DNA from: Hydrurus foetidus
Lineage: Eukaryota
Direction: 5' to 3'
Length of the DNA stretch: 64,000 nucleotides
Assembly (NCBI GenBank): GCA_900617105.1
Contig: UYFQ01000146.1
Coordinates: forward strand, 1-64,000
Part shown: piece after piece, positions 46,773-64,000 of the stretch
Position numbering within the stretch: the stretch's first letter is position 1
How the letters are laid out: each line of letters opens with the position of its first letter
Notes under the pieces: model-generated
Told to the model about the DNA's origin: nothing
Databases searched by the model: none
What the model saw: the letters and a program-made list of their open reading frames with translations, nothing else
Program-made: the position numbers and the translations under genes

Positions 46773-46864
46773 CAGCATACCGGCTGGATGTTTTCGAGTT
46801 TCTCACCAAATTCAATTCTGTTAATTGGGTTTGGTAAAAGGCACCAATATCTAACTGCGCTGTA

Positions 46865-48653
46865 TGGCGCGCCAAGTCGAACCCCTAGAATTTTACAGAA
46901 AAATTAAAAATTCGAACACGAAAATTTTTGTTCACACAAATTTTCACGCGCAACATTTTTTTTCCAACCGTTGCGGCTACTTCTGCGACCCAAATGATCA
47001 CCCAATCTTTACACCCAGACATATCACATACCGACCACTTTGAAGCACGATATCAAATTTCTGACAGCTCAACTACGAAAAGCAAATCGGCAGCAACCCG
47101 ATGAAACATTCAAAGCAGCTGTTGTCGCTATCTCAAGTTTTGGGCATCATCAAAGCCGGAGATGTCTTACATCTCCAAGACTCAGAATAACGGATCATTT
47201 TATCGACTCCGAGTCATCAGGGGTAATTTCTACAGCAGGTAGAAATATTTTGACCGCAGGAACTTTCTCTTACTTGCATGAAAATACAGGCGGCCACTTA
47301 TTTCTGCGTCAGACGATCGCGGGAAGCCAGGTCTTCCCAAACCGTTTTCACTGCCAAAACGGTTTAGAAAAAATGTCTGCTTATTTTACGATGCCTACTT
47401 TCAATAAGATGCTGGCATGTATAGTTGTGTACAGCTACGTAAATTTTCATGCAATAACTATGGATAGATTTTTCTCTATGATTGCTGTAAGCCTTATAAA
47501 AAGTTGTTTTGCAAAAAGAAGCACTCTTGCAAATTTCGAGTGTAGTAAGAGCCCTGAGGACTTTCACACAATCGGTACTGCTAGATTACAGCGTTTGATA
47601 AATGATGCTCGAAAACCATAGCACAGCATCCAGTCGTCAAATTATGCGCATTTTGTTCTGCAGCTTATCTATGAAAAAGACAAGTTCGTGAGCATCTTGA
47701 GCGCTCTGGCCTCACTATTGCAACTCGAAATCAAATTCCTCTGGTGTAACTCTCGAGAATTCAAATAAATCGGTAGAAGAAGTGGCCACTACTAATTCAC
47801 AGCAACCGTCAGAGCGCTCAAGATGATCACGAACTTGTCTTTTTCATAGATAAGCATCGGAACAAAATGCGCATAATTTGTCGACTGGATGCTGTGCTGT
47901 GATATTCGAGCATCATTTATCAAACGCTGTAATCTAGCAGTACCGATCGTGTGAAAGTCCTCAGGGCTCTTACTACACTCGAAATTTGCAAGAGTGCTTC
48001 TTTTTGCAAAACAACTTTTTATAAGGCTTACAGCAATCATAGAGAAAAATCTATCCATAGTTATTGCATGAAAATTTACGTAGCTGTACACAACTATACA
48101 TGCCAGCATCTTATTGAAAGTAGGCATCGTAAAATAAGCAGACATTTTTTCTAAACCGTTTTGGCAATGAAAACGGTTTGGGAAGACCTGGCTTCCCGCG
48201 ATCGTCTGACGCAGAAATAAGTGGCCGCCTGTATTTTCATGCAAGTAAGAGAAAGTTCCTGCGGTCAAAATATTTCTACCTGCTGTAGAAATTACCCCTG
48301 ATGACTCGGAGTCGATAAAATGATCCGTTATTCTGAGTCTTGGAGATGTAAGACATCTCCGGCTTTGATGATGCCCAAAACTTGAGATAGCGACAACAGC
48401 TGCTTTGAATGTTTCATCGGGTTGCTGCCGATTTGCTTTTCGTAGTTGAGCTGTCAGAAATTTGATATCGTGCTTCAAAGTGGTCGGTATGTGATATGTC
48501 TGGGTGTAAAGATTGGGTGATCATTTGGGTCGCAGAAGTAGCCGCAACTGTTGGAAAAAAAATGTTGCGCGTGAAAATTTGTGTGAACAAAAATTTTCGT
48601 GTTCGAATTTTTAATTTTTCTGTAAAATTCTAGGGGTCCGACTTGGCGCGCCA
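46865..48653. mobile_element. Foldback element: ~845-bp inverted arms with a ~100-bp spacer
   Basis: Mirror-image identical ORFs 47040-47621(+) and 47792-48478(-); TA on both flanks. Confidence 0.9.
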
Positions 48654-48888
48654 TACTCTGTGTGTTTGCCAGTCGAATAATGTTTTCTGTACTTGTGCTT
48701 CTTTTCTTATTCGAAAAAAAGTTAGTATTTTCGGATTCGGAATCGATGCCAGACAACAGTGGGGAATACAGAATTTCAAGCTGAACACGAATATTAAAAC
48801 CGTTTGTTCCACTTCGCTAGAATGGAAAACATCCAACCGGTTTAAAATTGAGTGTAAAAAGTCCAATTTATGGATTTTACGGTTTTTC

Positions 48889-49268
48889 TATGTATTTTTA
48901 AAACCCCCGCGAGAGTAAAAAATCGTGTTTTTGCTTACTTTTCCTTGCTTTTTTTGGCGTTTTTACGAGAAAATGTAACGTTTTTATATCCTTTTCTTAC
49001 GTTATAATTATAACGCCTCTATTTTATAATATTTTACATTTTGTATATTTACTCCATTTTAGCAGTAAAAATACTCCTTCATTTTTCTCTTTTTTTCTCA
49101 CAATACCATTTTTATGTCTCTTATAAATCATAATATCTTTACACCATTTTAGCAGTCATTTTATTGTATTCTATTCTCTTACATTTTCTCGTAAAAACGC
49201 CAAAAAAAGCAAGGAAAAGTAAGCAAAAACACGATTTTTTACTCTCGCGGGGGTTTTAAAAATACATA
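48889..49268. repeat. 380-bp unit with 90-bp inverted arms at the left viral boundary
   Basis: 48889-48978 is the reverse complement of 49179-49268; followed by (AATACAG)n at ~49273-49310. Confidence 0.9.
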
Positions 49269-49317
49269 AGTAAATACAGAATACAGAATACAGAATACAG
49301 AATACAGAATATACGCC

Positions 49318-49470
49318 GTGGCACTTGTGGCGTTTCTTGCCCCACTTTGACAAAATAATCTCAATTAATCCTTAAACAAACAAACATATTTATAAAATGT
49401 TTTTGTTTTTTCTTTTTTTTGTAGAAAACTTTGTAGAAGAAGGGCAGAATACGCCACAAGTGCCACACTC
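49318..49470. repeat. ~153-bp repeat, inverted partner of 60623-60775
   Basis: Bounded by GTGGCACTTGTGGCGT...ACGCCACAAGTGCCAC. Confidence 0.9.
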
Positions 49471-49538
49471 CTCACTCCTCACTTTTTATCTTAAATACCA
49501 TCTAATTCATTGTTCTATCATAATTTATAATAGTTCTT

Positions 49539-50864
49539 TTACTGGATTACACGGGCCGATTTCTCACTTGGATCTATCTCAATTAGAACATCAAACGCAC
49601 TAATCAGAGTTGCTGAGACGGGAAACGCCGTCGCAGTAGCTATGTTTAATCGGACAGTCACGGGGGAATTTTGAGTACTAACCCCACTCAAAAGAACGGA
49701 ATTCGACTGAATTTGTTCGGTATTCACTGCGTAATAAACCTTGGCAGGATTTACAACGGTGGATGCAGTTCCTAGGGTCAAATACTCTTGCTGGTTAATA
49801 CTCATGCTGTTATGCTTGTTATATAAACTACCCACGGCCTTCTTCAATTCCAAGAAAAGCGTACCACGAGAAGCTACTGCTGACGAAAGTGGACGACTCT
49901 GTGGATAAAGACGAGATGCTATACTAAACTGAACATCACCACCAGATGTAATTTCGAATGCATCAAATTTACCGTTCTGAGAACCTGAACCACAATGAAG
50001 GAAAAGTGATTTAACGGATGCCATTTTCTGTGAGTAAATCAACTCAAACTGACCTGCTGTTCCTGAGTTGATAGGGTTAGATGAACTATTGAAAGATTGA
50101 CTCTTAATTGTAATTTTCTCCCCCATAGAACGAACAGCATTGTCTACTTCAGTACCAAAGTCAATTTGGCTGTAAGAAAGCACAAAATCGCTCAAGGTAA
50201 AATCAGTTGGCGTTACTGTTGCACTTGAAACTGGAGTACCTGTTTCAAGATTTAGTGTTACTGCAGCAGCCAATGGAGGAGCAAAGATGTTGGCAATGGA
50301 ATCAAGAGTAAGTTGAATACGGATATTTGGCATCATTCCTGTTGGTATATACCTATCCGCCTCGGATAGAATACACCCCTTCAGTGGACCCCAAAACGAA
50401 CCCGTCTCATTTTGTCCGCAAGAACGTCCATCAGTCGACTGCCATGTATGTACCTTATCAGCACCTTCGAGAGCCCAACCGTAACCCGTCACACTACCAA
50501 TTTTGTCCGCCACGTTATGCGTCAGGTTAATAAGCATATTCTGAAGTTGACCGTACTCATTTATGTTCTGGACTGGCTGAGATCCGAAGATGGTTTCAAG
50601 ACGGAGAATAGGGGTAAAGAAAGGACAAGCACGGATACGAGTCACACCCGTAGAAACACAAGTATATTTATAACGGAGGGCGAGGGTTTTACCGTCCATA
50701 TATCCAGCACGGGCAGGTAGATCGAACTGGACGTAAGCACCCGCCGTAGCACAACTGAAACTTGTTCCATTCACAGGAAGGACGTTAATATCAAATGTCT
50801 GGACGCCAGATGGAAGTGAGACAGGAAGGTCGTAATTAATCTCTTTTGGAAGCATTAAACTCAT
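49539..50864 (-). CDS. Major capsid protein (putative double jelly-roll)
   Basis: Intact 441-aa beta-rich ORF with VQFDLP..GYMD..TLALRY and ILRLET..QNINEY segments typical of PLV-type MCPs; neighbours a penton-like gene and an ATPase. Confidence 0.85.
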   Translation of the reverse strand: MSLMLPKEINYDLPVSLPSGVQTFDINVLPVNGTSFSCATAGAYVQFDLPARAGYMDGKTLALRYKYTCVSTGVTRIRACPFFTPILRLETIFGSQPVQNINEYGQLQNMLINLTHNVADKIGSVTGYGWALEGADKVHTWQSTDGRSCGQNETGSFWGPLKGCILSEADRYIPTGMMPNIRIQLTLDSIANIFAPPLAAAVTLNLETGTPVSSATVTPTDFTLSDFVLSYSQIDFGTEVDNAVRSMGEKITIKSQSFNSSSNPINSGTAGQFELIYSQKMASVKSLFLHCGSGSQNGKFDAFEITSGGDVQFSIASRLYPQSRPLSSAVASRGTLFLELKKAVGSLYNKHNSMSINQQEYLTLGTASTVVNPAKVYYAVNTEQIQSNSVLLSGVSTQNSPVTVRLNIATATAFPVSATLISAFDVLIEIDPSEKSARVIQ

Positions 50865-50911
50865 TCTTTAAGTATAGTGTATCAAAAGAGATTAATTTGA
50901 ATAAAAACGCA

Positions 50912-51857
50912 TTATATTTGTATCCCGTGCTTATACATAAAATAATCTAAATCATTTTCATCTCCCCCAGTATTTGTTTCTACATTTTGTGGTTGCTTTG
51001 TATCCAGTATTTGTTGTGTTGAATCCCTAAATAGAGAATTAATTCTTTCTTTTAAAATACGGGTTGTTGTAATTGCCAGAGTAATGCTATACTCTACATT
51101 ATTGAAGTTTATATAGCGGTTATTTTCATCTGTAATTGTAATATCAATATTTGATATTTCCTTATTTCTCATTAAACCTCCTTTTTTTGAACTATTATTT
51201 TCATACAGTATCAATCCGGTTGCTACAGAATTTACGGGTATGATTCCGAGTAAATCACCGCCCCCCCCCCGATGATAAACCACTTGTATGTAAAGCGGAA
51301 GAACTGATTTTTAATTTCTTTATTCCGATTAAAGATGCAGGATGTTCGGCGTTTAAGATATTACCTGTTGATATGTAAGAAGACACAGAATCAAAACCGA
51401 TAATCTCATTGATAGTTCCGCCTGAAGCACTTGATAATATCGTAAAGGTTGTTCCGATTGGTGATACAAATAACAATTTACCTGTAACCTTATTAAATGT
51501 TATTGTAAATGCATATCCTGCGTTTAAAAACCCCTGCTTGATTACACTCATAAGCGACGTAATATTGTAATTTCCACGCTCTATTGTCATCAGTTGTATC
51601 ACACCACTATTTATTTTATATGCTAATACATTTGTTGTGTAATTGATAAGGTAGAATGACACAGGAATCTGAGCATTTATAATATCAATATGAGAATACA
51701 ATATATCATCATCATCTTTTAAGACGTTTTTTAAATCAAATGATATTTGTGATAAAAAGGAAGATTCGTATAAAGTATTTCCGGAACCACTACTTGGTTT
51801 TTTGATACAATGTTGAGTGTTGAGAGATATGTAACGAGTGTCCTCAACCGTCAGCAT
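50912..51857 (-). CDS. Minor capsid (penton-like) protein, frameshifted in a G-run near 51265
   Basis: NAQIPVSFY.IN, I.RGNY, LLGIIPV and IDITITDENNRYINFNNVEYSITL; adjacent to the MCP. Confidence 0.75.
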
Positions 51858-51881
51858 TTTTATATTCTCTTATACTATAAT

Positions 51882-52569
51882 ATGTCATATTTAAATTCTG
51901 TTCAAAAGATTATCAATAGGATAGGCGACGATGAAATCACGAAAATCACGGTAAATCGAACCCCGCTGTCAAAAGTATTAAAATTCCTACTCAATATTAC
52001 ATCACGAGGACAGTTGGAGAAAAAGATGGAAAATACGGATTATGACACTTTGTATCATCTCTTTATGGTTGTTCAAACTAAAAACTCTTTACATGTTATT
52101 GAGAAAAACGAAGTGATACAAATTTACAAATTCTCAAAAATGGGGAAAGGGACGGAAACTCTACCTGTACCTATCAATGCTGGACTGACTCTCAATGATA
52201 TGCTTTCAAAAACGAAAAGCAAAATGGGGGGTTCTTACTTTCTTACAAAGGGCTGATAATAATTGTCAGAACTACATTATTTCTATTTTAATATCAAACG
52301 GGTTAAATACAGACGCTCTCGAAAAGTTTGTTTTACAGGATACTAGACAATTATTTGAAGGTAATGAACAATTTCGTAAAATTGTAAATACAACTACAGA
52401 TGTAGGAGCGGTTGCAACTACGGCAATAGATAAGATACAAAGCAATGAACTTTTACAAAAACCAAGCACGGGATACAGTTTATTTTCAACCAGCAACATG
52501 AAGTTTAATAACGTACTGAATCGTGATATACCAGAATTTTTCAAAAATAGTTTTTCAAGATTATTTTAA
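51882..52569 (+). CDS. Putative permuted papain-like (NlpC/P60, LRAT/PPPDE-type) peptidase, frameshifted near 52240
   Basis: LYHLF followed ~70 residues later by NNCQNY, i.e. His-before-Cys order. Confidence 0.55.
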
Positions 52570-52585
52570 TGTATTGGTATTGTAA

Positions 52586-53215
52586 ATGGCAAAAAAGAGA
52601 ATTACCAAAAAACCATCTAAAAAGGGGTTGAAGCAGAAACAGAAACAATCACAAAGCGTCGTAGTAAATATTAACACCACCAAAGCAAGGGCAAAAAGGA
52701 CTGCTCCACAACCTGCTTATCGCCAACAACCACAGTATATTACTTTACAAGGTGAACCATCTCCTCCAATTATTTATAATACAGTAGGAACGGTAAAAGA
52801 AACTGTATTTGAACCAGTTAGAATACCTACAAATAGCGTTGGAATACAGACATTGACCCCTCAAGGAATACGAGTTAGTAAAATTCCAGTTCCAAGTAAA
52901 AAAAAATATGATGAAGCGGTTGTAAATCTTACGGACTTATACAAAACACCTGATGATAATTTCTACTATGATAATACTACTCCAATAGCAAGACGAACAC
53001 GGGCTCAACACCCATTGACCCCAGACGAGATAGAAACACGTCGATTACTTCGTAACCAAAAGGCACGGGAAAAGAGGTTAGAAAAAAAAAAACACAGGTG
53101 GTTAGACATTATAAAAGATTTTTTATATATATTTTATTATGTATCATGCTTTACTTCTTTTTTGCGTTTTTCTTGTTTCGTGCAACAATTGCTTTTTGTG
53201 CCTTTGTTGGCTTAG
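52586..53215 (+). CDS. Basic viral protein (possible DNA-binding core protein)
   Basis: K/R-rich, KQKQKQSQSVVVNIN motif; the C-terminus after an A-run is probably a frameshift artefact. Confidence 0.55.
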   Translation: MAKKRITKKPSKKGLKQKQKQSQSVVVNINTTKARAKRTAPQPAYRQQPQYITLQGEPSPPIIYNTVGTVKETVFEPVRIPTNSVGIQTLTPQGIRVSKIPVPSKKKYDEAVVNLTDLYKTPDDNFYYDNTTPIARRTRAQHPLTPDEIETRRLLRNQKAREKRLEKKKHRWLDIIKDFLYIFYYVSCFTSFLRFSCFVQQLLFVPLLA

Positions 53216-53420
53216 CATTTGCTGGAAGAACATACTCACCTCCATGGGCAAGAATAACCTTTGCCTTACCTTTCTTACCACCTACTGCACCACCATTCTT
53301 GAACGGGGCTAGTCCACCAAGGGCTGTTCCGAGCACCTGACCATCCACGCCTGGAATGGGTAAAAATTTAGAACCGATAGCACCTAATCCACCTCCTAAC
53401 AAAGATCCAAAAAATCCCAT
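53151..53420 (-). CDS. Small Gly-rich virion protein, possibly N-myristoylated
   Basis: MGFFGSLLGGG start (MGxxxS), AHGGEYVLP motif, basic tail. Confidence 0.65.
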   Translation of the reverse strand: MGFFGSLLGGGLGAIGSKFLPIPGVDGQVLGTALGGLAPFKNGGAVGGKKGKAKVILAHGGEYVLPANAKPTKAQKAIVARNKKNAKKK

Positions 53421-53467
53421 TTTACTTTTAGTATATTATATTAAAACATATTAATATAATGCTAAAA

Positions 53468-53698
53468 CTAAACGATTGATGGCGGGGGTATATTATCTTT
53501 ACGATTAGTTCTGCTCTCTATCTCCAATTCCAAGTTTTCTGCTGATACATCACGGGTAATTTTACAACACCCTAAAACACACTCACGACACTTCACCTTG
53601 AAAATACACGTTGTTATTGTGATTAACGCCATTGATAAAAAACCGAATGTTAGAGTTATTACTGTTATAGAATTAGATGACTCAATGAATTGTGTCAT
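53468..53698 (-). CDS. Small single-pass membrane protein with a Cys cluster
   Basis: Hydrophobic stretch followed by CIFKVKCRECVLGCC. Confidence 0.55.
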   Translation of the reverse strand: MTQFIESSNSITVITLTFGFLSMALITITTCIFKVKCRECVLGCCKITRDVSAENLELEIESRTNRKDNIPPPSIV

Positions 53699-53719
53699 TT
53701 GTATGTGATATATTGATAT

Positions 53720-55041
53720 TTAAACTGACTGTAATGCGATCCAATCTACATTCACACCCGCTACTGATGCGGAATAAGTAAATGATGTAAGGGTTCTGCT
53801 GACTACAAAAAAACACCATTCCCTGATGGACTAATTAGCACTCTTGGTACAACTGCTCCTGAAAATGATGATGCTGGAAAATTCACCACATTATTTCCAA
53901 CGACGCTTAAAGTATTACCAAAAGACATTCCAGTCATTATCGTCCCAAAATTACCTAATTGTAATCGTGTCGTTATGATCCCTAACCCAGCGAAAATCGC
54001 CTGTCCTAAACAAGTGATTGCTTGATTGTTAATATTATACACTTTTAAGAATGTACTTGATACATAAGGTAGTATGTCTAATGATGACGTTAATGATGTT
54101 AATGCACCCGCTACGGGGGTTGTGTATACAATAGGAGTCGTCTTCTGCTGTAAAGCTGTAATATTAGTATTTTGTGTGGTATTTACTGCGTCTTGATTAG
54201 TGTTTACGGTCTCTATTGCTGTAGCACGTGTCTGTAATGCAGTGATATTTGTCCCTTGAGTCGTATTTACTCCCTCAATCGCTGTCAGGCGGTCATTTTG
54301 CGTCGTGTTTAAAGTAATCATAGTTGTCAATAAGTTTGATTGATTAGTGTTTGTATTTTCCACATTGGTTATGCGGGTGTTCTGTGTTGTATTCAATGTA
54401 TCTATATTCGTGATTGATGTCGCCTGATTCGTATTCACGGTTTCTATTGCTGTAGCACGTGTCTGTAATGCTGTAATATTCGTATTTTGCGTGGTATTGA
54501 CCGTTTCTATTGCTGTTGCACGTGTCTGTAGAGCAGTGATATTCGTATTCTGCGTGGTATTGACTCCCTCAATTGTTGTAGCACGTGTCTGTAATGCACT
54601 TATATCTGTATTTTGCGTATTATTTAAAGTGTCAATTCCATCTAATCTCGTCCTTTGGTTGGTATTTACAAACTCAATATCATCTAATCGTCCGTCTTGG
54701 ATTAAATTAGCTTCCTCTATAAGAACTAACCTATCATCTTGAACCAGATCTAGTGCCTCTATTGCGTTTGCACGTATCTCTAAATCACGAATTAAAGTTG
54801 ACTGTGCATTATACTGTGTGTCAGTATATCCTTTCGATACTAATTGATTCGGTAATGATGGCAATATATTGCATATTGGTAGAGAGTTATGAAGAACCGC
54901 ACCAGTTGTTGTTAATGTACTTGTTGTAATACCTTGATAAGAACAAGATGATCCGCTGATAAGAGGTGATGATAAACTGACCTCACCACTGATTCCGCAA
55001 GTTCCGCTTACTGCCAAATTTAATGCTGAAATATTTGACAT
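53720..55041 (-). CDS. Fibre/spike protein with 21-aa coiled-coil repeats (probable frameshift near 53810)
   Basis: Repeats of TTQNTNITALQTRATAIETVN; another frame continues ..VDWIALQSV to a stop at ~53720. Confidence 0.75.
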
Positions 55042-55074
55042 ATTATTATTATAAGATGATATTATAATAATACT

Positions 55075-55808
55075 TTAAGCTATTCGTAATACTGTTATTT
55101 TTGCGTTCTCTATCAATGTATTACTCGAGGTATTTACTGCCGTATTATGTTTTATATTAATAGATACAAAAAACTATTGTAATCTGTAATATGGAAAAAT
55201 CCCGATTCGTTAAATGTTACGTAAGATAAATTGTCGTTATAAACCAAATTTTGATAATTCTTTTTTTGTATCACATTTAAAATTGCATTATCTGTAGAAA
55301 GTCCATGAGTTATACTATGTAAGATTGGTAATGACACATCTGACAATCCAAGAGTAAAACTATATGACACCATATACACACCAATAGGTAATGGTAAATT
55401 TACAATTGATGAAACCGTATTTGTTGATACTAATGACCTTGATGCTATTATTGATGATGTTTTTATATATCGCACATTTGTATCATCATATGATTGTAAA
55501 TTATTATACAAATGAATATTTCCTGTTTTTAACTTTTTGCATTCCAAAATACTTGATACTAATTTTGTTGTGTACAAATTTGGAACGACAATACTATTAC
55601 CGACTGCTACGTCACGCCCTATCGCAACCGATTGACCAGCTGTAATGTTATTCAATACACTCAAATTTATTGTATTTAAACTATTTGTCTCAATATCATC
55701 TGCTATTACCCTATCACATTCTAATACTCCATTTTCCAAGGTTGCAACACCATCACTGACACTCTCCAGTCCTGCCATTGTCTGTAGGTTGTATGTAAAA
55801 GATGACAT
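55075..55808 (-). CDS. Fibre-like virion protein (probable frameshift near 55155)
   Basis: Beta-repeat stalk-like N-half and GVYMVSYSF head-like region; an alternative frame ends ..ITVLRIA at 55075. Confidence 0.55.
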
Positions 55809-55824
55809 TCTATACTATACCTAT

Positions 55825-56279
55825 TCATATTTTCTCGAAATTTAAAGCAAGTAAGTATTCAGGAATCTCGAGACCTCTCGAATCAGTCCATAGAGAACCA
55901 TCTAAAAATGTTATTTTTACTGTAAATTCATTTACTGACGGGGCATTACCGAGAAAAATGACATTATTCGTGTTGGAATCGCCATACAAAAAACTGTTCG
56001 CATCATTTTCGTTTGGAATAATAGAACCAATTATATTTGTGGTTGATGCTTCCACATTTGTTGGTGATGCTGTATACACACTACTCTGACCTAATTTAAT
56101 TGATACTAAACCAACACTATTTACTGTTGTATCGATTCCTGAACACGTAAAACCCCAACGAAGTAAATACTGCCCTTCAGGAAGCACACCCCCCAATTAA
56201 AATAGTATGTTGAATTTGATGATGATGTAAGTGTTGGCACTCTATTACTACTATTGATTAGTACATTGTAAATTGGCAT
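55825..56279 (-). CDS. Small beta-rich (single jelly-roll-like) virion protein, frameshifted in a G-run near 56190
   Basis: ATG at 56279 reads MPIYNVLINSNNRV..YYFNWG and continues into ORF 55825-56196. Confidence 0.6.
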
Positions 56280-56300
56280 AATATAATCTATGTTAAGAAA

Positions 56301-56555
56301 TTATTCTATCTTTTCAAATTGAAGTTGTATGATATAACTGTAATTTAAAGTTGATACTAAATTTGTCAGATTATCTATTAATTTCACACTAAAAGTGTTA
56401 TTCTGTGGTCTGCTGCGTAATTCAATTGTCTGATTCACATCTATACGGGGTATAAATCTACCTAATTCTCTAGTGTTTCTCGATACAACTTGTGTCGGTG
56501 ATGTTGTTGTAACTGTATCTTGACCCAAATCTATATGCAAAATTATATTTGACAT
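56301..56555 (-). CDS. 84-aa protein paralogous to the C-terminal half of the 55825-56279 product
   Basis: Shared LGQ..T.SPT, G..IP, P..N.F.VK and Y...L.FEKI. Confidence 0.65.
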   Translation of the reverse strand: MSNIILHIDLGQDTVTTTSPTQVVSRNTRELGRFIPRIDVNQTIELRSRPQNNTFSVKLIDNLTNLVSTLNYSYIIQLQFEKIE

Positions 56556-56573
56556 TATACAATAATAGGTATA

Positions 56574-57308
56574 TTATAATAATGTTCTCGTATATAATGA
56601 ATTTATGTCTGTTGCTGTGAGAGTACTTGAATATAACCTCATATCATCCAGACGTCCTGTTAAAAACGATGACCCCCTATATGCACCAAGATTTATGGCT
56701 GCAGTATCTCCACCCCATGATAAATTACCTGTTCTCACAAGCACTCCATTTACATACAAAAGCGTCTGTGATGCTGTTGTTGTTATTGCGTAAAATATCC
56801 ATGCACCTGATGTCTGAGCTACTGTCGATACGACATCTCCTCCACCACCTAGACCAAAATTTACTGTCACAGTTAAAAATGTGCCACCATTAAACCATAT
56901 GGGCATTTTAGTGGTGCTGTATGCATTATTAGCACCTGACGTAAAAATAGGCATTTTGAGCCAAAATGTCTTGGTTGAATTTACGGGCGTCGGTTGAATT
57001 AATGATAAAAAATTTGCACCTGTAAAATTAAATACACTACCACGTATTGTATCATTAATCATAGACACATTAGTATTATTTAATGTTATACCATCTACTG
57101 TTGCCGGGACTGTCAATGTTGAACTCTTCACTCTAAAAACCCAAGGTATTTCTGGTATTACGGGAATTAACTGCTTACAAATGCTATAACTTACACGGTA
57201 TTTTCCATCGTCCAATATCGCACCCCAATTGACACGAAACTCATAATCATTTGCTGAAGTAGCACTATTTACCCTATCTTTTGAGTTGAGTAGTATCTTA
57301 ATTGACAT
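56574..57308 (-). CDS. LamG/concanavalin A-like domain protein
   Basis: W.FYAIT, LYVNGVL, IN.GAY and GRLDDMRLYS..LT..DI..LY are LamG-like signatures. Confidence 0.8.
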   Translation of the reverse strand: MSIKILLNSKDRVNSATSANDYEFRVNWGAILDDGKYRVSYSICKQLIPVIPEIPWVFRVKSSTLTVPATVDGITLNNTNVSMINDTIRGSVFNFTGANFLSLIQPTPVNSTKTFWLKMPIFTSGANNAYSTTKMPIWFNGGTFLTVTVNFGLGGGGDVVSTVAQTSGAWIFYAITTTASQTLLYVNGVLVRTGNLSWGGDTAAINLGAYRGSSFLTGRLDDMRLYSSTLTATDINSLYTRTLL

Positions 57309-57456
57309 TAGTTAACATACTATTAGATATTTAAATGAATTTTGTCTCCGTCTTTACTTTTGTTTTTGGTTTTGGCTTTTCCAGAGTATTCAATTTCACT
57401 TTTTCTTTCATAATAATTCTATATCCCAGTTCGTTCGGTAGTTTATCCATAATATA

Positions 57457-58224
57457 TTATGCACATATTTTCTCCTTATCAACATCAACATCATCGTCAT
57501 CGTCTGGATCGGAAATTAGAATTTCGTCCCAGTTTTTAAACATTCTCTTACTCTCCACATTCACAAATAAAAAATTATGCTTCTTATCAAAAACTAATTT
57601 ACTTATTTTTGGCACTAAATCCACATTCTCCTCTATTGCTTCGTCCCAGATTGTATACAACTCTTTCTTGGCAACCTTGAATAAAAATATATTAGAAAAT
57701 ACCTTGCGGAGATCTAAAGGGATTTTCTTCCATCCCTGTGTTAAGAAGAAAATATTTGTCCTCAGATGCCTACGATTGTACACCAATTCTTCAAATAGAG
57801 TACGTGTGCTTTTTTGCTTTAAATACGCAGCCTGATCATCGAAAATTACACAGTTTTCCTCCCATTTTTCGCTATTGGTAATTCGTTCTAAAACATCACT
57901 TAAATCATCGTAATTCAATTTATCGAAACGCTGATTATCTGGAAGACAACTGAAGATATTGTCCTTCATTGATTCACCACTTACGGTTGGTTGAAAAATG
58001 TAAATATTATGGAATACTTTTTTTAATAATTTCGGGTGTTTAAAAAAACCCCATAATAGAGATGTCTTACCACTCTTTGGTGCACCACATAAAACCGTAC
58101 ATTCATGTGAATTCATCAAACTTGTCAGTGAGTACATATTCAATCGTGAATCAAGACCATCGTCACAATTCATTCGTGCTATTGGAAAAGCGGGGCGTAA
58201 ATTATGTTTTAAACTTATTGACAT
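57457..58224 (-). CDS. A32/FtsK-HerA-like DNA packaging ATPase
   Basis: Walker A GAPKSGKT, Walker B CVIFDD, RRH arginine motif, FLTQ..IP..LR. Confidence 0.9.
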   Translation of the reverse strand: MSISLKHNLRPAFPIARMNCDDGLDSRLNMYSLTSLMNSHECTVLCGAPKSGKTSLLWGFFKHPKLLKKVFHNIYIFQPTVSGESMKDNIFSCLPDNQRFDKLNYDDLSDVLERITNSEKWEENCVIFDDQAAYLKQKSTRTLFEELVYNRRHLRTNIFFLTQGWKKIPLDLRKVFSNIFLFKVAKKELYTIWDEAIEENVDLVPKISKLVFDKKHNFLFVNVESKRMFKNWDEILISDPDDDDDVDVDKEKICA

Positions 58225-58249
58225 TTTATGTAGTATACTGCTATTTTAT

Positions 58250-58732
58250 CTACACGAATCTGTATTTTGGTACAACTGGAACTGGAACTGCTGGAACTGT
58301 TGTTTTCATCACTTTTTCCACAACTGACCTCTTAAACCGTACAAGTTCCTTTTTTACTTCAGAGTCACTCTCATCTTCATCACTGCTAATATCATCAAGG
58401 GCAATATGCTTCTTCAATTCCTTTTTCGCAATAATATTTGCTTTTTTCACAATCTTTTTCTCCAGCAACTTCTTTCTCTCCAGTGCCTCCTTCGCATCGG
58501 TTTCTGCTTTCTCCTCCGCTTCCTTCTCTCTATTATTTGCTCGTATAGCTCTGGCCTCCGTTCGTTTCTCGATGACCTTCAAAAACGCCTCTTTCTGTTT
58601 TTCCGTACGTGGTTTCTTACTCTTTTCTATCGTCTTTGGTTCTTCTTCTACTTCACTATCTTCGGGAATATCTACCATTACGGGGACTTCTTCTACTAAA
58701 GATTCTAATTTATCAACGACTTTTCTTGGCAT
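58250..58732 (-). CDS. K/E-rich coiled-coil viral protein
   Basis: Intact 160-aa ORF (KKPRTEKQKEAF) directly upstream of the ATPase. Confidence 0.65.
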   Translation of the reverse strand: MPRKVVDKLESLVEEVPVMVDIPEDSEVEEEPKTIEKSKKPRTEKQKEAFLKVIEKRTEARAIRANNREKEAEEKAETDAKEALERKKLLEKKIVKKANIIAKKELKKHIALDDISSDEDESDSEVKKELVRFKRSVVEKVMKTTVPAVPVPVVPKYRFV

Positions 58733-58798
58733 ATTATACTACATATAGATAAAAAAATAAGAGATACAAAACTTATTAAAAATGTTATATTATCTTAT

Positions 58799-59312
58799 AT
58801 GCCAGTAAAGGTTACAGTTAAAAAATACAACGTGGCACACGATGAGCTCTTCTTGAAAGGAAAGAATGGTCTGTACTGTCTGCTTCCTTTCGAAAAATTA
58901 GACAGGAAAAAAAAGCAATTTTTAAAGTAGGCATGACTTCACAGGATGTAGCGTCAAGGATTGAGAACTATCATTCTTACTACCCTCTCGGATTGTATAT
59001 ATGTTTTTTTTATCATATCCAAGGGTAAATGAAGGACAAGATTAAAAGAAATTGTATCGTGAGATGGAAAAAAAACTAATTACTTATTTAAAAGAAACTG
59101 ATGCTAAAATGATGTTATTTCCCTCGAGACCAAGTAAGCGGTCTGAGTGGTTTTATACTGATTACGATGATTTACAAACAGCCTTTAGAAAGGTTCAAAC
59201 TGACTACGGTGGAATTTTACACGAATTTTCACTTGATGGTATTAATAAGCAATACGATACTATAATGAAAAATAAAAAGAAGTACGTGGGTGAGATTGTA
59301 TTCAAAGTATAA
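58799..59312 (+). pseudogene. GIY-YIG-like (T5orf172-type) nuclease domain, frameshifted in homopolymer runs
   Basis: Joined frames read GLYC..FKVGMT..RIENY..E..L..SEWF. Confidence 0.6.
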
Positions 59313-60428
59313 TTAAATATCAGGTAAACGCTCCACTGTGAAGCGTCCGCCCTCCGTCAGGTTCACGATGAACCAACCGCATTCGGCTACCTGACGCTCG
59401 ACATCACCATTCAGAAATGCGGGGGAAGGGTTCATAATGATAATATCAATAGCACATTTCTTGATATTCTCATACGAACATTTTGGAGTAAGGAATTGCA
59501 GTGGTAAAAGCATGATGAATGGTTTGCTACTCAACATTGCTTTCTCAAAGAACTGATGCTTGGAACAGAAGGGAGGGTTGGTGATTAGGACATCATAATC
59601 GGGGTCTTCCTCCACGAGATAATCTTGCTTTACTTCGGTGGTATAAAGGTCACGGGAAATGACGGTGAATCCCTTCTTCTCCAAATATCTCACGATTGCC
59701 CCATTGCCACAGCACGGCTCGTAGATAATTTTACCCTCCAATGTAGATAGGACGGGGTCAAGCAACATGAGAGCGTTCTCTGGCGTTTCGAATAGATCCT
59801 GCGGAAGAGATTTCGTGGCGTTTCCATATCTGGAACGGCGGAATAGCGGGGCGATCTCCTCCACTAGCTCTTCAAGAGAGAGTCTATTGATGTCGGCTGG
59901 TAAATCTTCTTCGTAATTGAACTCTTCGTCGACCGTGGTGGCGTCGTCTTCCTTCGGCTCATCGTAGGGAATCGTTTCGTCATCTCTGACAATGACAAGT
60001 TTTCGTCGTGGCGGTGTCACAACTCTCTGCGCTGTTTCTTCGGTTGGCATGAATGATGGAAAAAGCTCCAGCAATAGACGGTTGTAAATCTTGTTGATCT
60101 TCCTTTTCACGACGACTCTCAAATCTCGCAACAGATTCATTTCGTCAGTTCTTTCGGCAGCTTTTATATTGAGATACAACGAACTTTCTTCCAAGATTTT
60201 CTTGTCATCCTTTCCAATACCCATTGAGATGTAGTACTTAATCTCTGAATTGAACACCGTGAACTGGTTTCTTGTCAGGAAATATTCACCAAGAATGTTA
60301 AGAGTCATCTCCGTCTTCGCCTCGTACATTTCAGCAACCGTTGCCCAGTCAGTTATAGCATTTGACACTCTATCGGACATTGAGATCACAATCTCCAGAC
60401 CATCGCAATTCGTGACAACTCTCTGCAT
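59313..60428 (-). CDS. Amino (N6A/N4C) DNA methyltransferase with an unknown N-terminal domain
   Basis: SAM-binding IYEPCCGNG, catalytic ITNPPF, preceding DLFETP, and MLLP. Confidence 0.85.
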   Translation of the reverse strand: MQRVVTNCDGLEIVISMSDRVSNAITDWATVAEMYEAKTEMTLNILGEYFLTRNQFTVFNSEIKYYISMGIGKDDKKILEESSLYLNIKAAERTDEMNLLRDLRVVVKRKINKIYNRLLLELFPSFMPTEETAQRVVTPPRRKLVIVRDDETIPYDEPKEDDATTVDEEFNYEEDLPADINRLSLEELVEEIAPLFRRSRYGNATKSLPQDLFETPENALMLLDPVLSTLEGKIIYEPCCGNGAIVRYLEKKGFTVISRDLYTTEVKQDYLVEEDPDYDVLITNPPFCSKHQFFEKAMLSSKPFIMLLPLQFLTPKCSYENIKKCAIDIIIMNPSPAFLNGDVERQVAECGWFIVNLTEGGRFTVERLPDI

Positions 60429-60622
60429 CTTGTTGTTGATTTGTGAGTTGGTTGAGTAGGTGGTTGTTGAGAGCTGACTGTTGACTACTGATAGGCATAC
60501 AAAACGGAAAATTCAAAAATACGTAGTCCATTGTCCGTTCAACCTTCGACCAAATCGGTTCAAAATGTAAATCCTGAGGGGACACTGATAAAACTCCGTA
60601 TAAATGTCTTTATGTTAAAGTT

Positions 60623-60775
60623 GAGTGTGGCACTTGTGGCGTATTCTGCCCTTTTTGCACAAAGTTTTCTACAAAAAAAAGAAAAAACAAAAACATTTTA
60701 TAAATATGTTTGTTTGTTTAAGGATTAATAAAGATTATTTTGTTCAAGTGGGGCAAGAAACGCCACAAACGCCAC
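60623..60775. repeat. ~153-bp repeat, inverted partner of 49318-49470
   Basis: Direct sequence comparison; a few mismatches. Confidence 0.9.
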
Positions 60776-60776
60776 A

Positions 60777-61233
60777 CTACCCTTCAATAATATTATAGTC
60801 ATTTACTGTATTTTCTGTACTTTTTTCTACCACAATATCGTGACCCATTAATTTATATCCTAACAAAACGTTTCTATATTCTCTTGTTTTATCCTTGTAA
60901 TCTTCTCTAAATGTTCGATGGGTTTCAAAGAACTCATAAAAGTTTTTAAGATTATATTTGTGTTTTTGTTCTTTTGTAAAGTTGTAAAAAGTGTCAGTAT
61001 TTTTTAGTTTTTCATAAGCATCTTTAAGTTTTAAAATGTCTGTTTTCTTATCATCAGTTTTTATGTAATAATCATTAAACAACTCCATAATAGGAAATGA
61101 TTGATTGAGATAATTCATCGTCCTTTTTGCTACAACAGCAGGTATTTTCAATTTGTGTTCATTTCTCTGTAAATTCTTGTAAGAACTAATCAAAATTTGT
61201 AAGAAAGCGTCCCTGTGAGATTCCTTCCACGCC
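60777..61233 (-). pseudogene. C-terminus of a probable D5-like primase-helicase, cut by Gypsy B
   Basis: AFLQIL..Y, IP..V..RT..YL and a winged-helix-like end; catalytic motifs are not in the window. Confidence 0.6.
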
Positions 61234-61572
61234 TGTAGCCTCACTGTATCTGTACTGCATGTACGGATACACTGTGACTGTATACTATACCTGTACTGTA
61301 GATTCTAGAACGGACCCAAAGTCCGGTACAGTTTTCTTTTCTTTTCGTTTCCACGCGAGTACACATCACTGTAGATACTACTGCTTGTTTCTCGCTGTAA
61401 ACTATAAGAATACTCTTCCACCTCCCCCATCTTCGTTTTTCGCCTCCGTCCTCGTCCATCGTCCTCGTCCACCGTCCTTTGGTCACCAACGACCATAATA
61501 TCGATATTTGGTTCTACGACCAAAATTCTGTCCTTTTATTCCTCCATCTTTTCTCGAGAAAATTTTCAGAGC

Positions 61573-62739
61573 ATGGCTATTCGCCGTATCCGTGCCAAAG
61601 CCTCGGCTAAGGCCACCACCAACACCACCAACACCACCGACAACACCAGCGCCATCTTAAGACGAGCTCAGCCGCGCGCTGTCGCCGTCGCAGCACGGAA
61701 GGCGTATCTTAAGCATACGCAGCGCAACGTCCAAGACATAGAGTCTCCTGGATCACCTGCGATTCAGGACCCCGCCGGAGACCTGTCTGCGCCGGCGTCT
61801 CAGCCGACGTCGGGGCCTGCGGTCGTGTCTGCTATTGATGTGCCTGTCATTTCTGCGTTGTCTGCTTTATCTCTTTCACCAGCTTCGGCTGCGATACCAG
61901 CTTCGGCTGCGACACCAGCTTCGGCTGAGATCACGTCGACTTCGGTCGATAGATCTGCTAATCAACGTGCTTTGGCACCACCAACTCAGTACGTGCAAGT
62001 TGGTGAGAAAGCTCCTAAGTTGAGCGCCAAGCCGTCTTGGCAAGAGGTTCAAAGAGTTTCAGAGGTTCTCCTCTCGAATGGAACGCCGTTTCGGCCAGTT
62101 GATGTCGTTCATCACAGCAACTTCCAATCTTTTAAAACCCTTTTGCAACTTCGATTTGCAACCGACCCTGATCGTCGAGACAGTTGTAACAACTGGAGAA
62201 ACTGGACTAATCAGAATTTTTGTAGAGAATTGAATTTGGCAATTCCTGCAACTGCGACGTCCAGAACGGATAAACTAGGATTCATTGAATCCATTACTCA
62301 GATTCAAATTCAATTTGACCTGAAGAACCCATCAGTGGAAGAAAAGACAGACCAGCTTTTAGCTGATATTGTCGATGCATTCCCTGAGGTGTCAGCTGCC
62401 ATGCAGTTAACAGCAACTAAAATTCTTATTGATAAGTTGCCAGCTGAACCCATTAATTGGAGGTCAGTTTTGTACCGCACTCTCGATAGAACGCCACGTC
62501 TTATCACGGTCGATGATTTTCGATTCGTGTGGCGTGCGCAACTAAGAAAGCTACGAGAAGCAATTGATGCTTTACGGTTTGTAGACGTCCACCCGACTTA
62601 TGGCGATCATTCTCGCCAAATCAAAAACTCTAACCGTCCTCCTCAAGAGCCACGAATTAAAAACGGCAACGAGAGGACGAGAAGCCTGAGCAATCTGACA
62701 AACCCCACTGTACCGGCTGTGGGAGACTTGGCCACTTAG
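61573..62739 (+). CDS. gag: Gypsy B Gag (frame changes before the zinc knuckle)
   Basis: 388-aa ORF after the LTR; CTGCGRLGHLVATC is in an overlapping frame at ~62710-62750. Confidence 0.75.
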   Translation: MAIRRIRAKASAKATTNTTNTTDNTSAILRRAQPRAVAVAARKAYLKHTQRNVQDIESPGSPAIQDPAGDLSAPASQPTSGPAVVSAIDVPVISALSALSLSPASAAIPASAATPASAEITSTSVDRSANQRALAPPTQYVQVGEKAPKLSAKPSWQEVQRVSEVLLSNGTPFRPVDVVHHSNFQSFKTLLQLRFATDPDRRDSCNNWRNWTNQNFCRELNLAIPATATSRTDKLGFIESITQIQIQFDLKNPSVEEKTDQLLADIVDAFPEVSAAMQLTATKILIDKLPAEPINWRSVLYRTLDRTPRLITVDDFRFVWRAQLRKLREAIDALRFVDVHPTYGDHSRQIKNSNRPPQEPRIKNGNERTRSLSNLTNPTVPAVGDLAT

Positions 62740-64000
62740 TAGCCACTTGTCGATTCGGCTCTTCTCCGTACTTTAACAGTACCGAGAAACCTTTCCTTCA
62801 GTCGGAAGGAGGCAAAGATCTTTTGAAGATCGATCCCAAAGCGACGTTCATTCCAAACGCGTACGGAACATCTTCTTCTTCCGCTTCCTCCTCTTCTTCT
62901 GCGTCTTCTAAGACCGCGGCCTCGTCAGCAGACACTACTCGTGTCGCGAAGAAACAAAAAGGTGACTACGTTTACAACCTTAATATGTCGTCAATTGACA
63001 ACCCTTCCGTTTCATCGGATAAACATCTAATCCCCTTCTTTATTTCTCATATTTCTCAGCAAACTTCGCTGGAAGAGAAAAATAGAGTCTTCACTCTATT
63101 GGATACGGGATCGATCGCCAGCAATTTTATAGCTAGGCGTGTTATAAATAATCTTAACTTAACACAACATGTTTCTAAATCTTCTAAGACAGCGTGTAAA
63201 GTTTGTAGTGGTTTAGATAATCATTGCTATGAAATTTCTGAAACCATCGACTTAAAACTTTCTTATTTTTGCCCTGATTTAAATAATTATTCTTCTTTCC
63301 AAATCACGGCTTATGTTTTAGAACAAACACAAATTGATCTAATAGTGGGAAGAAAAATTATACGAGATTTAGATCTATTCTCGATTTTCCCAGATCAAAT
63401 AAAATCAAGCACTTCATCGCGACCAACCCCAATAAAGGGAGTCTCGACTTCTGAAGATGTGGTCATAACATGTGGCTGTCAGCCCGAAGAGACTTTGCAA
63501 ACCTCTAAAGGAACCCCAAAAGATCTTTCATTAACCCAAATGAAAGATCCGGCAGTCACCCAAACACATGTCATACTAGCTTCGTTAATTCAAGAGTCGG
63601 AACAACTATTTGGAGTTGTGCCGCCTGATGAAGATGAAATTGATGATTCATTAAATGACTCCTTTTCACCATGGATTAATGAATTTCTTGATACAGATTC
63701 ACTCTCGCTAATACACATAGCAGGTGATGAAGATCAGAAAAATAAACTCCGTTTACTATGTAACGAATTTAGGGATATATTTAGCAGTGAGCTTCCGGCT
63801 AGCCCTGCTGATATCCCACCGTTTGAACTTAACGTGGATGACGTAAAATGGAAAGTCTCCCGTAATAGAACACCTCCTCGACCACAATCCACTGCAAATC
63901 AAGCTGACATTATACGTCAACTCGCGAAACTTGAAGAGCAAGGGATTATCGAGAAATCAAATGCGGCTTATTACAGCCAAGTGCTTATGGTTCCAAAGTC
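62690..64000 (+). CDS. pol: Gypsy B zinc knuckle-protease-RT start (runs off the window)
   Basis: LLDTGS at ~63095-63112; IIEKSNAAYYSQVLMVPK at the window end. Confidence 0.8.

Follow-up and report, generated by a model that had tools for sequence, protein, structure and literature searches.

What kind of element is the AT-rich island at positions 48889-61233 of a 64,000-nt stretch of the Hydrurus foetidus genome (assembly GCA_900617105.1, contig UYFQ01000146.1, positions 1 to 64,000 of the forward strand; the whole stretch is called the window here), and how would such an element start its replication? Our data leave little doubt that the island is a Polinton-like virus (PLV) provirus in a protist genome. 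The explanation that fits best overall, and which we hold with moderate confidence, is a provirus whose primase-helicase gene was cut by a Gypsy retrotransposon and whose two 153-nt palindromes are likely origins of replication.

The island stands out from its surroundings by its composition (GC content of 0.356, versus 0.440 and 0.447 in the left and right flanks) and by its gene density, with 16 gene intervals covering 92% of positions 49539-61233. The AT-rich island of about 16 closely packed genes that a preliminary description of the sequence had outlined is thus borne out (35.6% versus about 44% GC). The right edge is abrupt (GC 0.26 to 0.45), and the left edge is gradual and passes through the AT-rich end of a host transposon, whose homology breaks off at 48887, directly before a 380-nt foldback. 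The flanking DNA is eukaryotic: it contains retrotransposon and transposase-like frames and, 21 kb to the left, a major facilitator superfamily (MFS) gene with GT-AG introns as judged by eye, the first organism-named match of which is a Mallomonas protein (68% identity across 30% of the query; fungal matches with an organism name, 35 to 38%). Judged by this one gene, the host is likely a protist of the chrysophyte type. The intron-bearing MFS gene, the surrounding retrotransposons, and the truncation of the host repeat at 48887 argue for integration into host DNA.

The virion genes point to the same assignment. The putative major capsid protein (MCP) has 172 homologs, the best of which span 100% of the query, and its structural model, based on a 110-row alignment (pLDDT of 88), matched in Foldseek the MCPs of Singapore grouper iridovirus (SGIV; E = 3e-18) and of chlorella virus PBCV-1 (E = 7e-15), in agreement with a viral library. 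The predicted protein therefore has the double jelly-roll fold on which the preliminary description had staked the MCP assignment. By sequence, the MCP had no match in Pfam, NCBIfam, PDB sequences, or INPHARED, its profile found no sequence match among solved structures (by fold, virophage MCPs rank 26th or lower), and scans of viral and metagenome contigs with the single protein gave none either. With the MCP alignment, 31 loci of 4 to 18 kb were collected from IMG/VR, and all 31 of these MCP-bearing viral loci have a homolog of the packaging ATPase. The latter has conserved Walker A/B and NRRH motifs and, given its Pox_A32 match and its presence in every locus, is of the A32 type and not of a cellular family. 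The two halves of the penton gene were matched in 30 (N-terminal half) and 29 (C-terminal half) of the 31 loci, the C-terminal half from the window joined the penton family profile at 99.1%, and the model of an intact family member (locus L008) matched the mavirus penton (E = 8e-10); hence, a penton-like gene, as described before, is supported by the predicted fold of a relative, the window gene itself being split. In this way, the earlier reading holds: an endogenous PLV whose genes include the MCP, a penton, an A32 ATPase, and the tail of a D5-like helicase. The MCP, ATPase, and methyltransferase frames are likewise intact, as stated there. When the open reading frames (ORFs) of the 31 related loci were compared with the window, no match fell outside the island.

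The helicase tail is 99% identical to the helicase P0121, and all 22 matches carry the D5_N domain. The N-terminus of P0121 itself resembles the tail of a second superfamily 3 (SF3) helicase (DUF5906) fused in front, which may be a chimeric allele or a misassembly. The N-terminal domain of the relatives' helicases may be PolA-like (TVpol), judged by a motif that is present in 12 of the 22 proteins. Upstream, the helicase gene of this copy is cut by the Gypsy element, and no whole helicase is encoded. The long terminal repeat (LTR) of the Gypsy element opens with TG at 61234. In a comparison of the window (49420-61600) with four of the 20 listed sequencing runs, from three studies (X1, X2, and X3 among them), loose ends were seen at 61234 in X3, with very high depth. 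Furthermore, a contig of 1807 nt from X1 matches 60714-61233 and then diverges from the window, which is consistent with an uninterrupted helicase gene and a polymorphic Gypsy insertion.

The two palindromes were absent from the preliminary description. They form an inverted pair (49318-49470 and 60623-60775) with 94% identity, and each arm consists of two 9-nt repeats followed by a TGCCC box; the center is 81% AT, and the other arm is the mirror image. The copy at the helicase stop has a folding z score of −6.35 (0 of 200 shuffles). Alignments of helicase and ATPase widened the collection to 189 loci, and the 300 nt past each stop were scored against 708 shuffles, the counts covering genes above the length limits that have their stop within the locus and at least 250 nt downstream, after removal of rows that shared 85% identity or more with one already retained. 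A palindrome above the 99th shuffle percentile lies 3′ of 40 of the 58 SF3 helicases, compared to 12 of 176 genes for MCP, penton, ATPase, recombinase, and the family B DNA polymerase (PolB). Gene by gene, the values were 2/48 for MCP, 2/53 for penton, 2/47 for ATPase, 5/22 for the recombinase-like gene, and 1/6 for PolB, with 1/2 for the superfamily 2 (SF2) helicase. The difference is also seen if only gaps of at least 150 nt are counted (38 of 47 SF3 helicases versus 10 of 40 other genes). Tandem repeats are present in 29 of the 40 arms, versus 155 of 740 background windows, and extra copies of the module were found in 12 of the 25 loci of at least 9 kb, with up to six in L033.

The repeat unit varies among elements, and the box is constant. 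A facing pair of boxes follows 12 of 58 helicases versus 1 of 178 other genes, and all 12 loci belong to a 37-row helicase clade that includes P0121 (0 of the 26 rows outside). The box is absent from all 19 helicase loci with a match to the MCP profile, and L033, with several copies, has a putative capsid gene that matches neither the window MCP profile nor Pfam or PDB sequences; therefore, the box tracks the helicase and not the capsid. The putative capsids of L033, L204, and L205 look virophage-like. In L033, a small-virus contig of 19 kb, the six box-type modules lie between 2315 and 12179, and the capsid gene bears no relation to the window MCP. Because the box was chosen after the data had been seen, IMG/VR was also scanned with the motif only, which yielded 18 loci on 17 contigs. 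Eight of these contigs have the module 16 to 467 nt 3′ of a helicase, and together they represent 7 distinct helicases with at most 44% identity to the earlier set. The other matches comprised L201, in which the module is upstream of the likely helicase start, three small-virus-like contigs with other positions, one contig of 1.15 Mb, and four in one shared, unrelated context without a helicase match. In the 1.15-Mb contig (L202, 5001-5080), a box-type palindrome is accompanied by tandem repeats, and there is no helicase within 5 kb. The exact 18-nt module pattern was found at one locus, with no viral seed match.

Layout and position of the module equal those of the replication origins of Staphylococcus aureus pathogenicity islands (SaPIs), and for this reason, we regard the two palindromes as probable, though still candidate, origins. 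SaPI origins (Rep/PriRep5) lie directly downstream of rep, have an AT-rich center flanked on either side by two or more iterons in opposed directions, and are bound by the C-terminal domain of the helicase, according to the parts of PMC9371898 considered here. There are also differences: the SaPI is a bacterial satellite with 6 to 12 copies of 5- to 6-nt iterons and, in these parts of the paper, no reported inner box, whereas the PLV module has two to three units of 7 to 10 nt on each side, a TGCCC box internal to them, and dispersed extra copies, and helicase binding is established for the SaPI origin (PMC9371898), whereas the PLV module is known from its sequence. Our literature searches turned up no defined PLV replication origin beyond a terminal-repeat hypothesis, and no paper that links iterons of a eukaryotic virus to virophages or to TVpol. 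Barth et al. (2024; PMC11296320) hypothesized that PLV inverted repeats serve as the origin for the primase-helicase (the end-module model of entomopoxvirus-associated PLVs), and Barth et al. (2026; 10.64898/2026.10.13.758929) mark palindromic repeats in one figure legend. In both papers, repeats that like ours lie near a primase-helicase are proposed as an origin or as brackets of mobile replicases, but as far as the consulted sections go, they are terminal or unspecified, with neither an iteron-box layout nor counts across genomes.

A possible course of replication can be drawn from these comparisons. The first step would be excision of an intact copy. A likely tyrosine recombinase is often present in relatives, and a gene of about 300 aa in 14 of the 31 relatives resembles an annotated recombinase by eye, with no Pfam match. 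Next, hexamers of the helicase would be loaded through its C-terminal domain onto the repeat pairs that face each other and would open the AT-rich center; priming and copying would fall to the primase-polymerase fused at the N-terminus, and filling of the capsid to the ATPase. The window copy, presumably replication defective, may be copied in trans by sibling copies, which is conceivable because it retains both palindromes and the virion genes. What the analysis shows are the gene identities, the predicted folds, the Gypsy cut, and the palindromes with their association with helicase genes; we infer the host group, origin function, excision, and complementation alike.

Several points weigh against an origin downstream of a Gypsy-cut helicase. 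Eighteen of the 58 helicases have no palindrome above the threshold, 20 of the 32 loci in the box clade have no box pair, and in 9 of the 17 contigs found by motif, the module is not 3′ of a helicase. The box was picked post hoc, the helicase tree is a quick one, and the Fisher p value of 1.6e-7 overstates independence, because the loci are related. The boxes in the window are 104 nt apart, compared to 61 to 95 nt in the 12 loci, and thus fall outside the scan pattern. On the side of the Gypsy junction, the X3 contig continues into the LTR for 30 letters, one fewer than the bridging rule requires, and X3 is possibly the source of the window assembly itself and hence may not be independent. The window stops inside the Gypsy element, and no integrase, right terminus, or pair of terminal inverted repeats (TIRs) was found within it. 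Finally, the second copy of the module lies directly past the MCP stop in the window, as a terminator would, and likewise in L001, L003, and L005.

Giant viruses and their virophages end transcripts at hairpins (the "hairpin rule"). The main rival to an origin is therefore a transcription-end hairpin of this kind, which would leave the provirus assignment unchanged: the second copy follows the MCP in the window and in three related loci, the other copy sits at the helicase stop, and the module folds well as a single strand. Still, we consider it unlikely, since palindromes follow just two each of the MCP, penton, and ATPase genes counted above, the box follows the helicase clade and not the capsid type, a terminator needs none of the tandem repeats that most helicase-side arms contain, and some copies are upstream of the helicase (L022 and L201). 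Somewhat less likely still is a reading of the palindromes as sites of recombination, or as a tiny mobile repeat, by which gene modules are bounded and shuffled. It would suit the extra copies in about half of the long loci, the near-identical MCPs with different replicases in L022, L023, and L088, and the repeats bracketing replicases that are noted in the part of Barth et al. (2026; 10.64898/2026.10.13.758929) considered here. However, no target-site duplication was seen by eye around the window copies, different helicases go with different repeat units under a constant layout, and 13 of the 25 long loci have a single copy, whose place at the 3′ end of the helicase follows from how the test was built. 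A role as a recombination site is compatible with a role as an origin.

The remaining two alternatives concern the element as a whole. The 153-nt pair is inverted, 94% identical, and encloses all virion genes, and it might thus represent the TIRs of a complete, 11.5-kb element without a helicase, the helicase stub belonging to a neighboring tandem copy; MCP contigs are indeed about 3.5 to 4.5 times deeper than the helicase contig in X1, X2, and X3, although depth is not copy number. We regard this as improbable, because complete relatives (L004 and L022) have separate terminal repeats with the module inside or beside them and because the order of helicase and then module is conserved. More improbable yet is a free virus contig that was fused with host sequence by error in an assembly of mixed origin. 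No listed contig from the compared runs covers the whole stretch, but a host retrotransposon lies within a viral gene, starting with TG at 61234 and reached by the X3 contig, and a host repeat is truncated at the left edge. We therefore keep to an integrated PLV with candidate origins; its features are compiled in Table 1.

Table 1. Features of the island and its edges in the window
Positions	Strand	Feature	Evidence or remark
48889-49268	.	380-nt foldback	Perfect 90-bp arms, then short simple tandem repeat
49318-49470	.	Palindromic module, second copy, inverted; candidate origin	68 nt beyond MCP stop
49539-50864	-	MCP, predicted double jelly-roll	Open frame, 441 aa
50912-51857	-	Penton (minor capsid protein)	Two frames, break near 51273
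51882-52569	+	Likely NlpC/P60-type lipase or peptidase (YSLV5 ORF11-like)	Break near 52239; homologs in 2/31 loci
52586-53215	+	Basic protein, possible core protein	KQKQKQ-type N-terminus; 1/31 loci by tblastn
53151-53420	-	Small Gly/Lys-rich protein	5/31 loci
53468-53698	-	Small hydrophobic protein	No family match
53803-55041	-	Fibre-like protein, 21-residue repeats	63-bp tandem array; weak PHROG tail-fibre match, E 4e-4
55152-55808	-	N-terminal part of family fibre protein	May form a single gene with 53803-55041
55825-56300	-	Small conserved protein	Break near 56188; 17/189 loci
56301-56555	-	Small protein	1/31 loci, weak
56574-57308	-	LamG/concanavalin-like protein, likely attachment	PF13385, E 5e-15
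57457-58224	-	A32-type packaging ATPase	Open frame, 255 aa; PF04665 (Pox_A32), E 1e-7
58250-58732	-	Conserved charged coiled-coil protein	14/31 loci
58709-59312	+	T5orf172-like nuclease gene	Three pieces; weak PF10544, E 0.03
59313-60428	-	DNA methyltransferase	Open frame, 371 aa; phrog_799, E 2e-32 over residues 207-358
60623-60778	.	Palindromic module; candidate origin	Abuts helicase stop
60777-61233	-	D5-like (SF3) primase-helicase, C-terminal 151 aa	Cut upstream by Gypsy element
61234-64000	+	Ty3/Gypsy retrotransposon (LTR start, gag, pol start)	Non-viral; Ty3 peptidase, E 0.0013

The element is an endogenous PLV (Polisuviricotina in the broad sense), probably of a family already in print. 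The suggestion that it may represent an undescribed group was not supported, since a by-eye comparison revealed the same gene family set in a genome of the 2021 PLV survey. A motif search of the survey supplement (Bellas and Sommaruga 2021; PMC7805220) hit one MCP, that of GKSPLV13 (V5MERGE_NODE_3031), which is listed in cluster PC_0160 (VC_46, VC_48) with 17 members, a blank group column, and a BLAST match to TVSG_00021 of Tetraselmis viridis virus S1. As far as the supplement allows a comparison by eye, GKSPLV13 shares a homologous MCP (with the SVKSLF and NGKFD stretch), an adjacent penton, the ATPase, a charged protein, a small beta protein, and a basic protein, but carries a PolB of the protein-primed kind (pPolB) together with a lipase where the window has the D5-like helicase, the methyltransferase, and LamG. 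From this likeness to PC_0160, a placement in the TVS/TsV supergroup, class Aquintoviricetes, appears likely. Proviruses of the TsV cluster are reported from ochrophytes. The endogenous PLVs of chrysophytes and other ochrophytes that are described in the consulted parts of PMC12220804 and PMC10120064 are likewise low-GC insertions with MCP and primase-helicase, nested Gypsy elements, and apparent frameshifts that are often assembly artifacts; nested Gypsy elements and artifactual frameshifts are reported for chrysophyte PLVs in particular (Bellas et al. 2023; PMC10120064). The window differs from them in showing no right terminus, TIR pair, or integrase.

In a quick tree of 20 of the 120 listed homologs and the MCPs of 47 loci, the window MCP falls into a 21-row clade of database proteins (support of 100) with none of the 47 locus MCPs; the novelty left over is the sub-branch holding the window MCP. 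A look-up in the Atlas returned no MCP group name. The marks of Polintoviricetes (Maverick/Polinton, Gossevirus), namely an adenain-type cysteine protease and, in group 1, pPolB plus RVE, were not found among the island ORFs, a result limited to the visible part because the element is truncated; the earlier observation that pPolB, integrase, and adenain-type protease are missing is accordingly confirmed for these ORFs. The mark of Virophaviricetes, a virophage-type MCP, was found neither by sequence nor by fold rank. The replicases of the relatives are varied: several kinds of SF3 helicase, one SF2 helicase, pPolB, and fusions of PolB with SF1. Indeed, L022, L023, and L088 have near-identical MCPs with differing replicases (SF3 fusion versus PolB-SF1), which is a recent replicase swap, and mobility of PLV replicases, with like MCPs beside unlike replicases, is a subject of Barth et al. 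(2026; 10.64898/2026.10.13.758929) in the part consulted. A single contig of 28782 nt (L072/L073) contains two mirror-image PLV copies, either a head-to-head dimer or an assembly artifact.

Among the other island genes, the product of 51882-52569 had no informative Pfam or PHROG match and resembles, by eye, a gene annotated as "phospholipase" in the supplement of the 2021 survey. N-termini similar to that of the basic protein are visible by eye in many loci, and the 55152-55808 product aligns through its residues 7 to 46 with the beginning of a protein of 746 aa in L072/L073 (E = 1e-6). The methyltransferase ORF has a GC content at third codon positions (GC3) of 0.53, compared to 0.25 to 0.36 for the other island genes. 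Its N-terminal half (59860-60428) has no family match, is GC3 rich, and has a shallower coverage than the virion genes, and is possibly a recently acquired piece.

Five genes are split in the window: the penton, the peptidase-like gene, the fibre region, the gene at 55825-56300, and the T5orf172-like gene. Relative to the window, the majority contigs of the sequencing runs show indels at 51273, 55153, and 56188 (4 of 4 runs) and at 52239 and 53806 (3 of 4 runs), which fall at or beside the breaks in the first four. These breaks are either assembly errors or copy-specific changes. The majority contigs pool sibling copies, as is evident from many substitutions relative to the window besides the indels.

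At the left edge, the foldback at 48889-49268 looks inserted at a TA within a palindromic site and truncates the host transposon end; its arm had no match in viral contigs and none elsewhere in the window. It represents the left terminus of the virus or, alternatively, a host miniature inverted-repeat transposable element. Further to the left, positions 10202-46721 contain several LTR retrotransposons, some of them nested, with LTR pairs of 99 to 100% identity, and a 1.8-kb foldback with 847-nt arms at 99% identity (46862-48656) lies beside an LTR. The host region is undergoing a recent transposon invasion.

A further provirus copy adds little, because endogenous PLVs are common in protists; the family is already known, and the origin candidate is the part of greater interest. 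With its fixed layout, variable units, and many natural pairs of helicase and repeat, the 153-nt element lends itself to a direct binding or swap test, and the module may account for the movement of replicases between capsid lineages. Tentatively, and at somewhat less than even odds in our judgment, the idea can be extended to small eukaryotic DNA viruses with an SF3 primase-helicase in general: they may use SaPI-style origins in which the helicase recognizes a variable repeat and a TGCCC box common to the whole clade possibly marks the site of priming. Helicase and origin would then form one cassette that moves between unrelated capsid lineages, and spare origins would allow both the copying in trans of proviruses with a dead helicase and the homology for the module swaps behind the mosaicism of these viruses.

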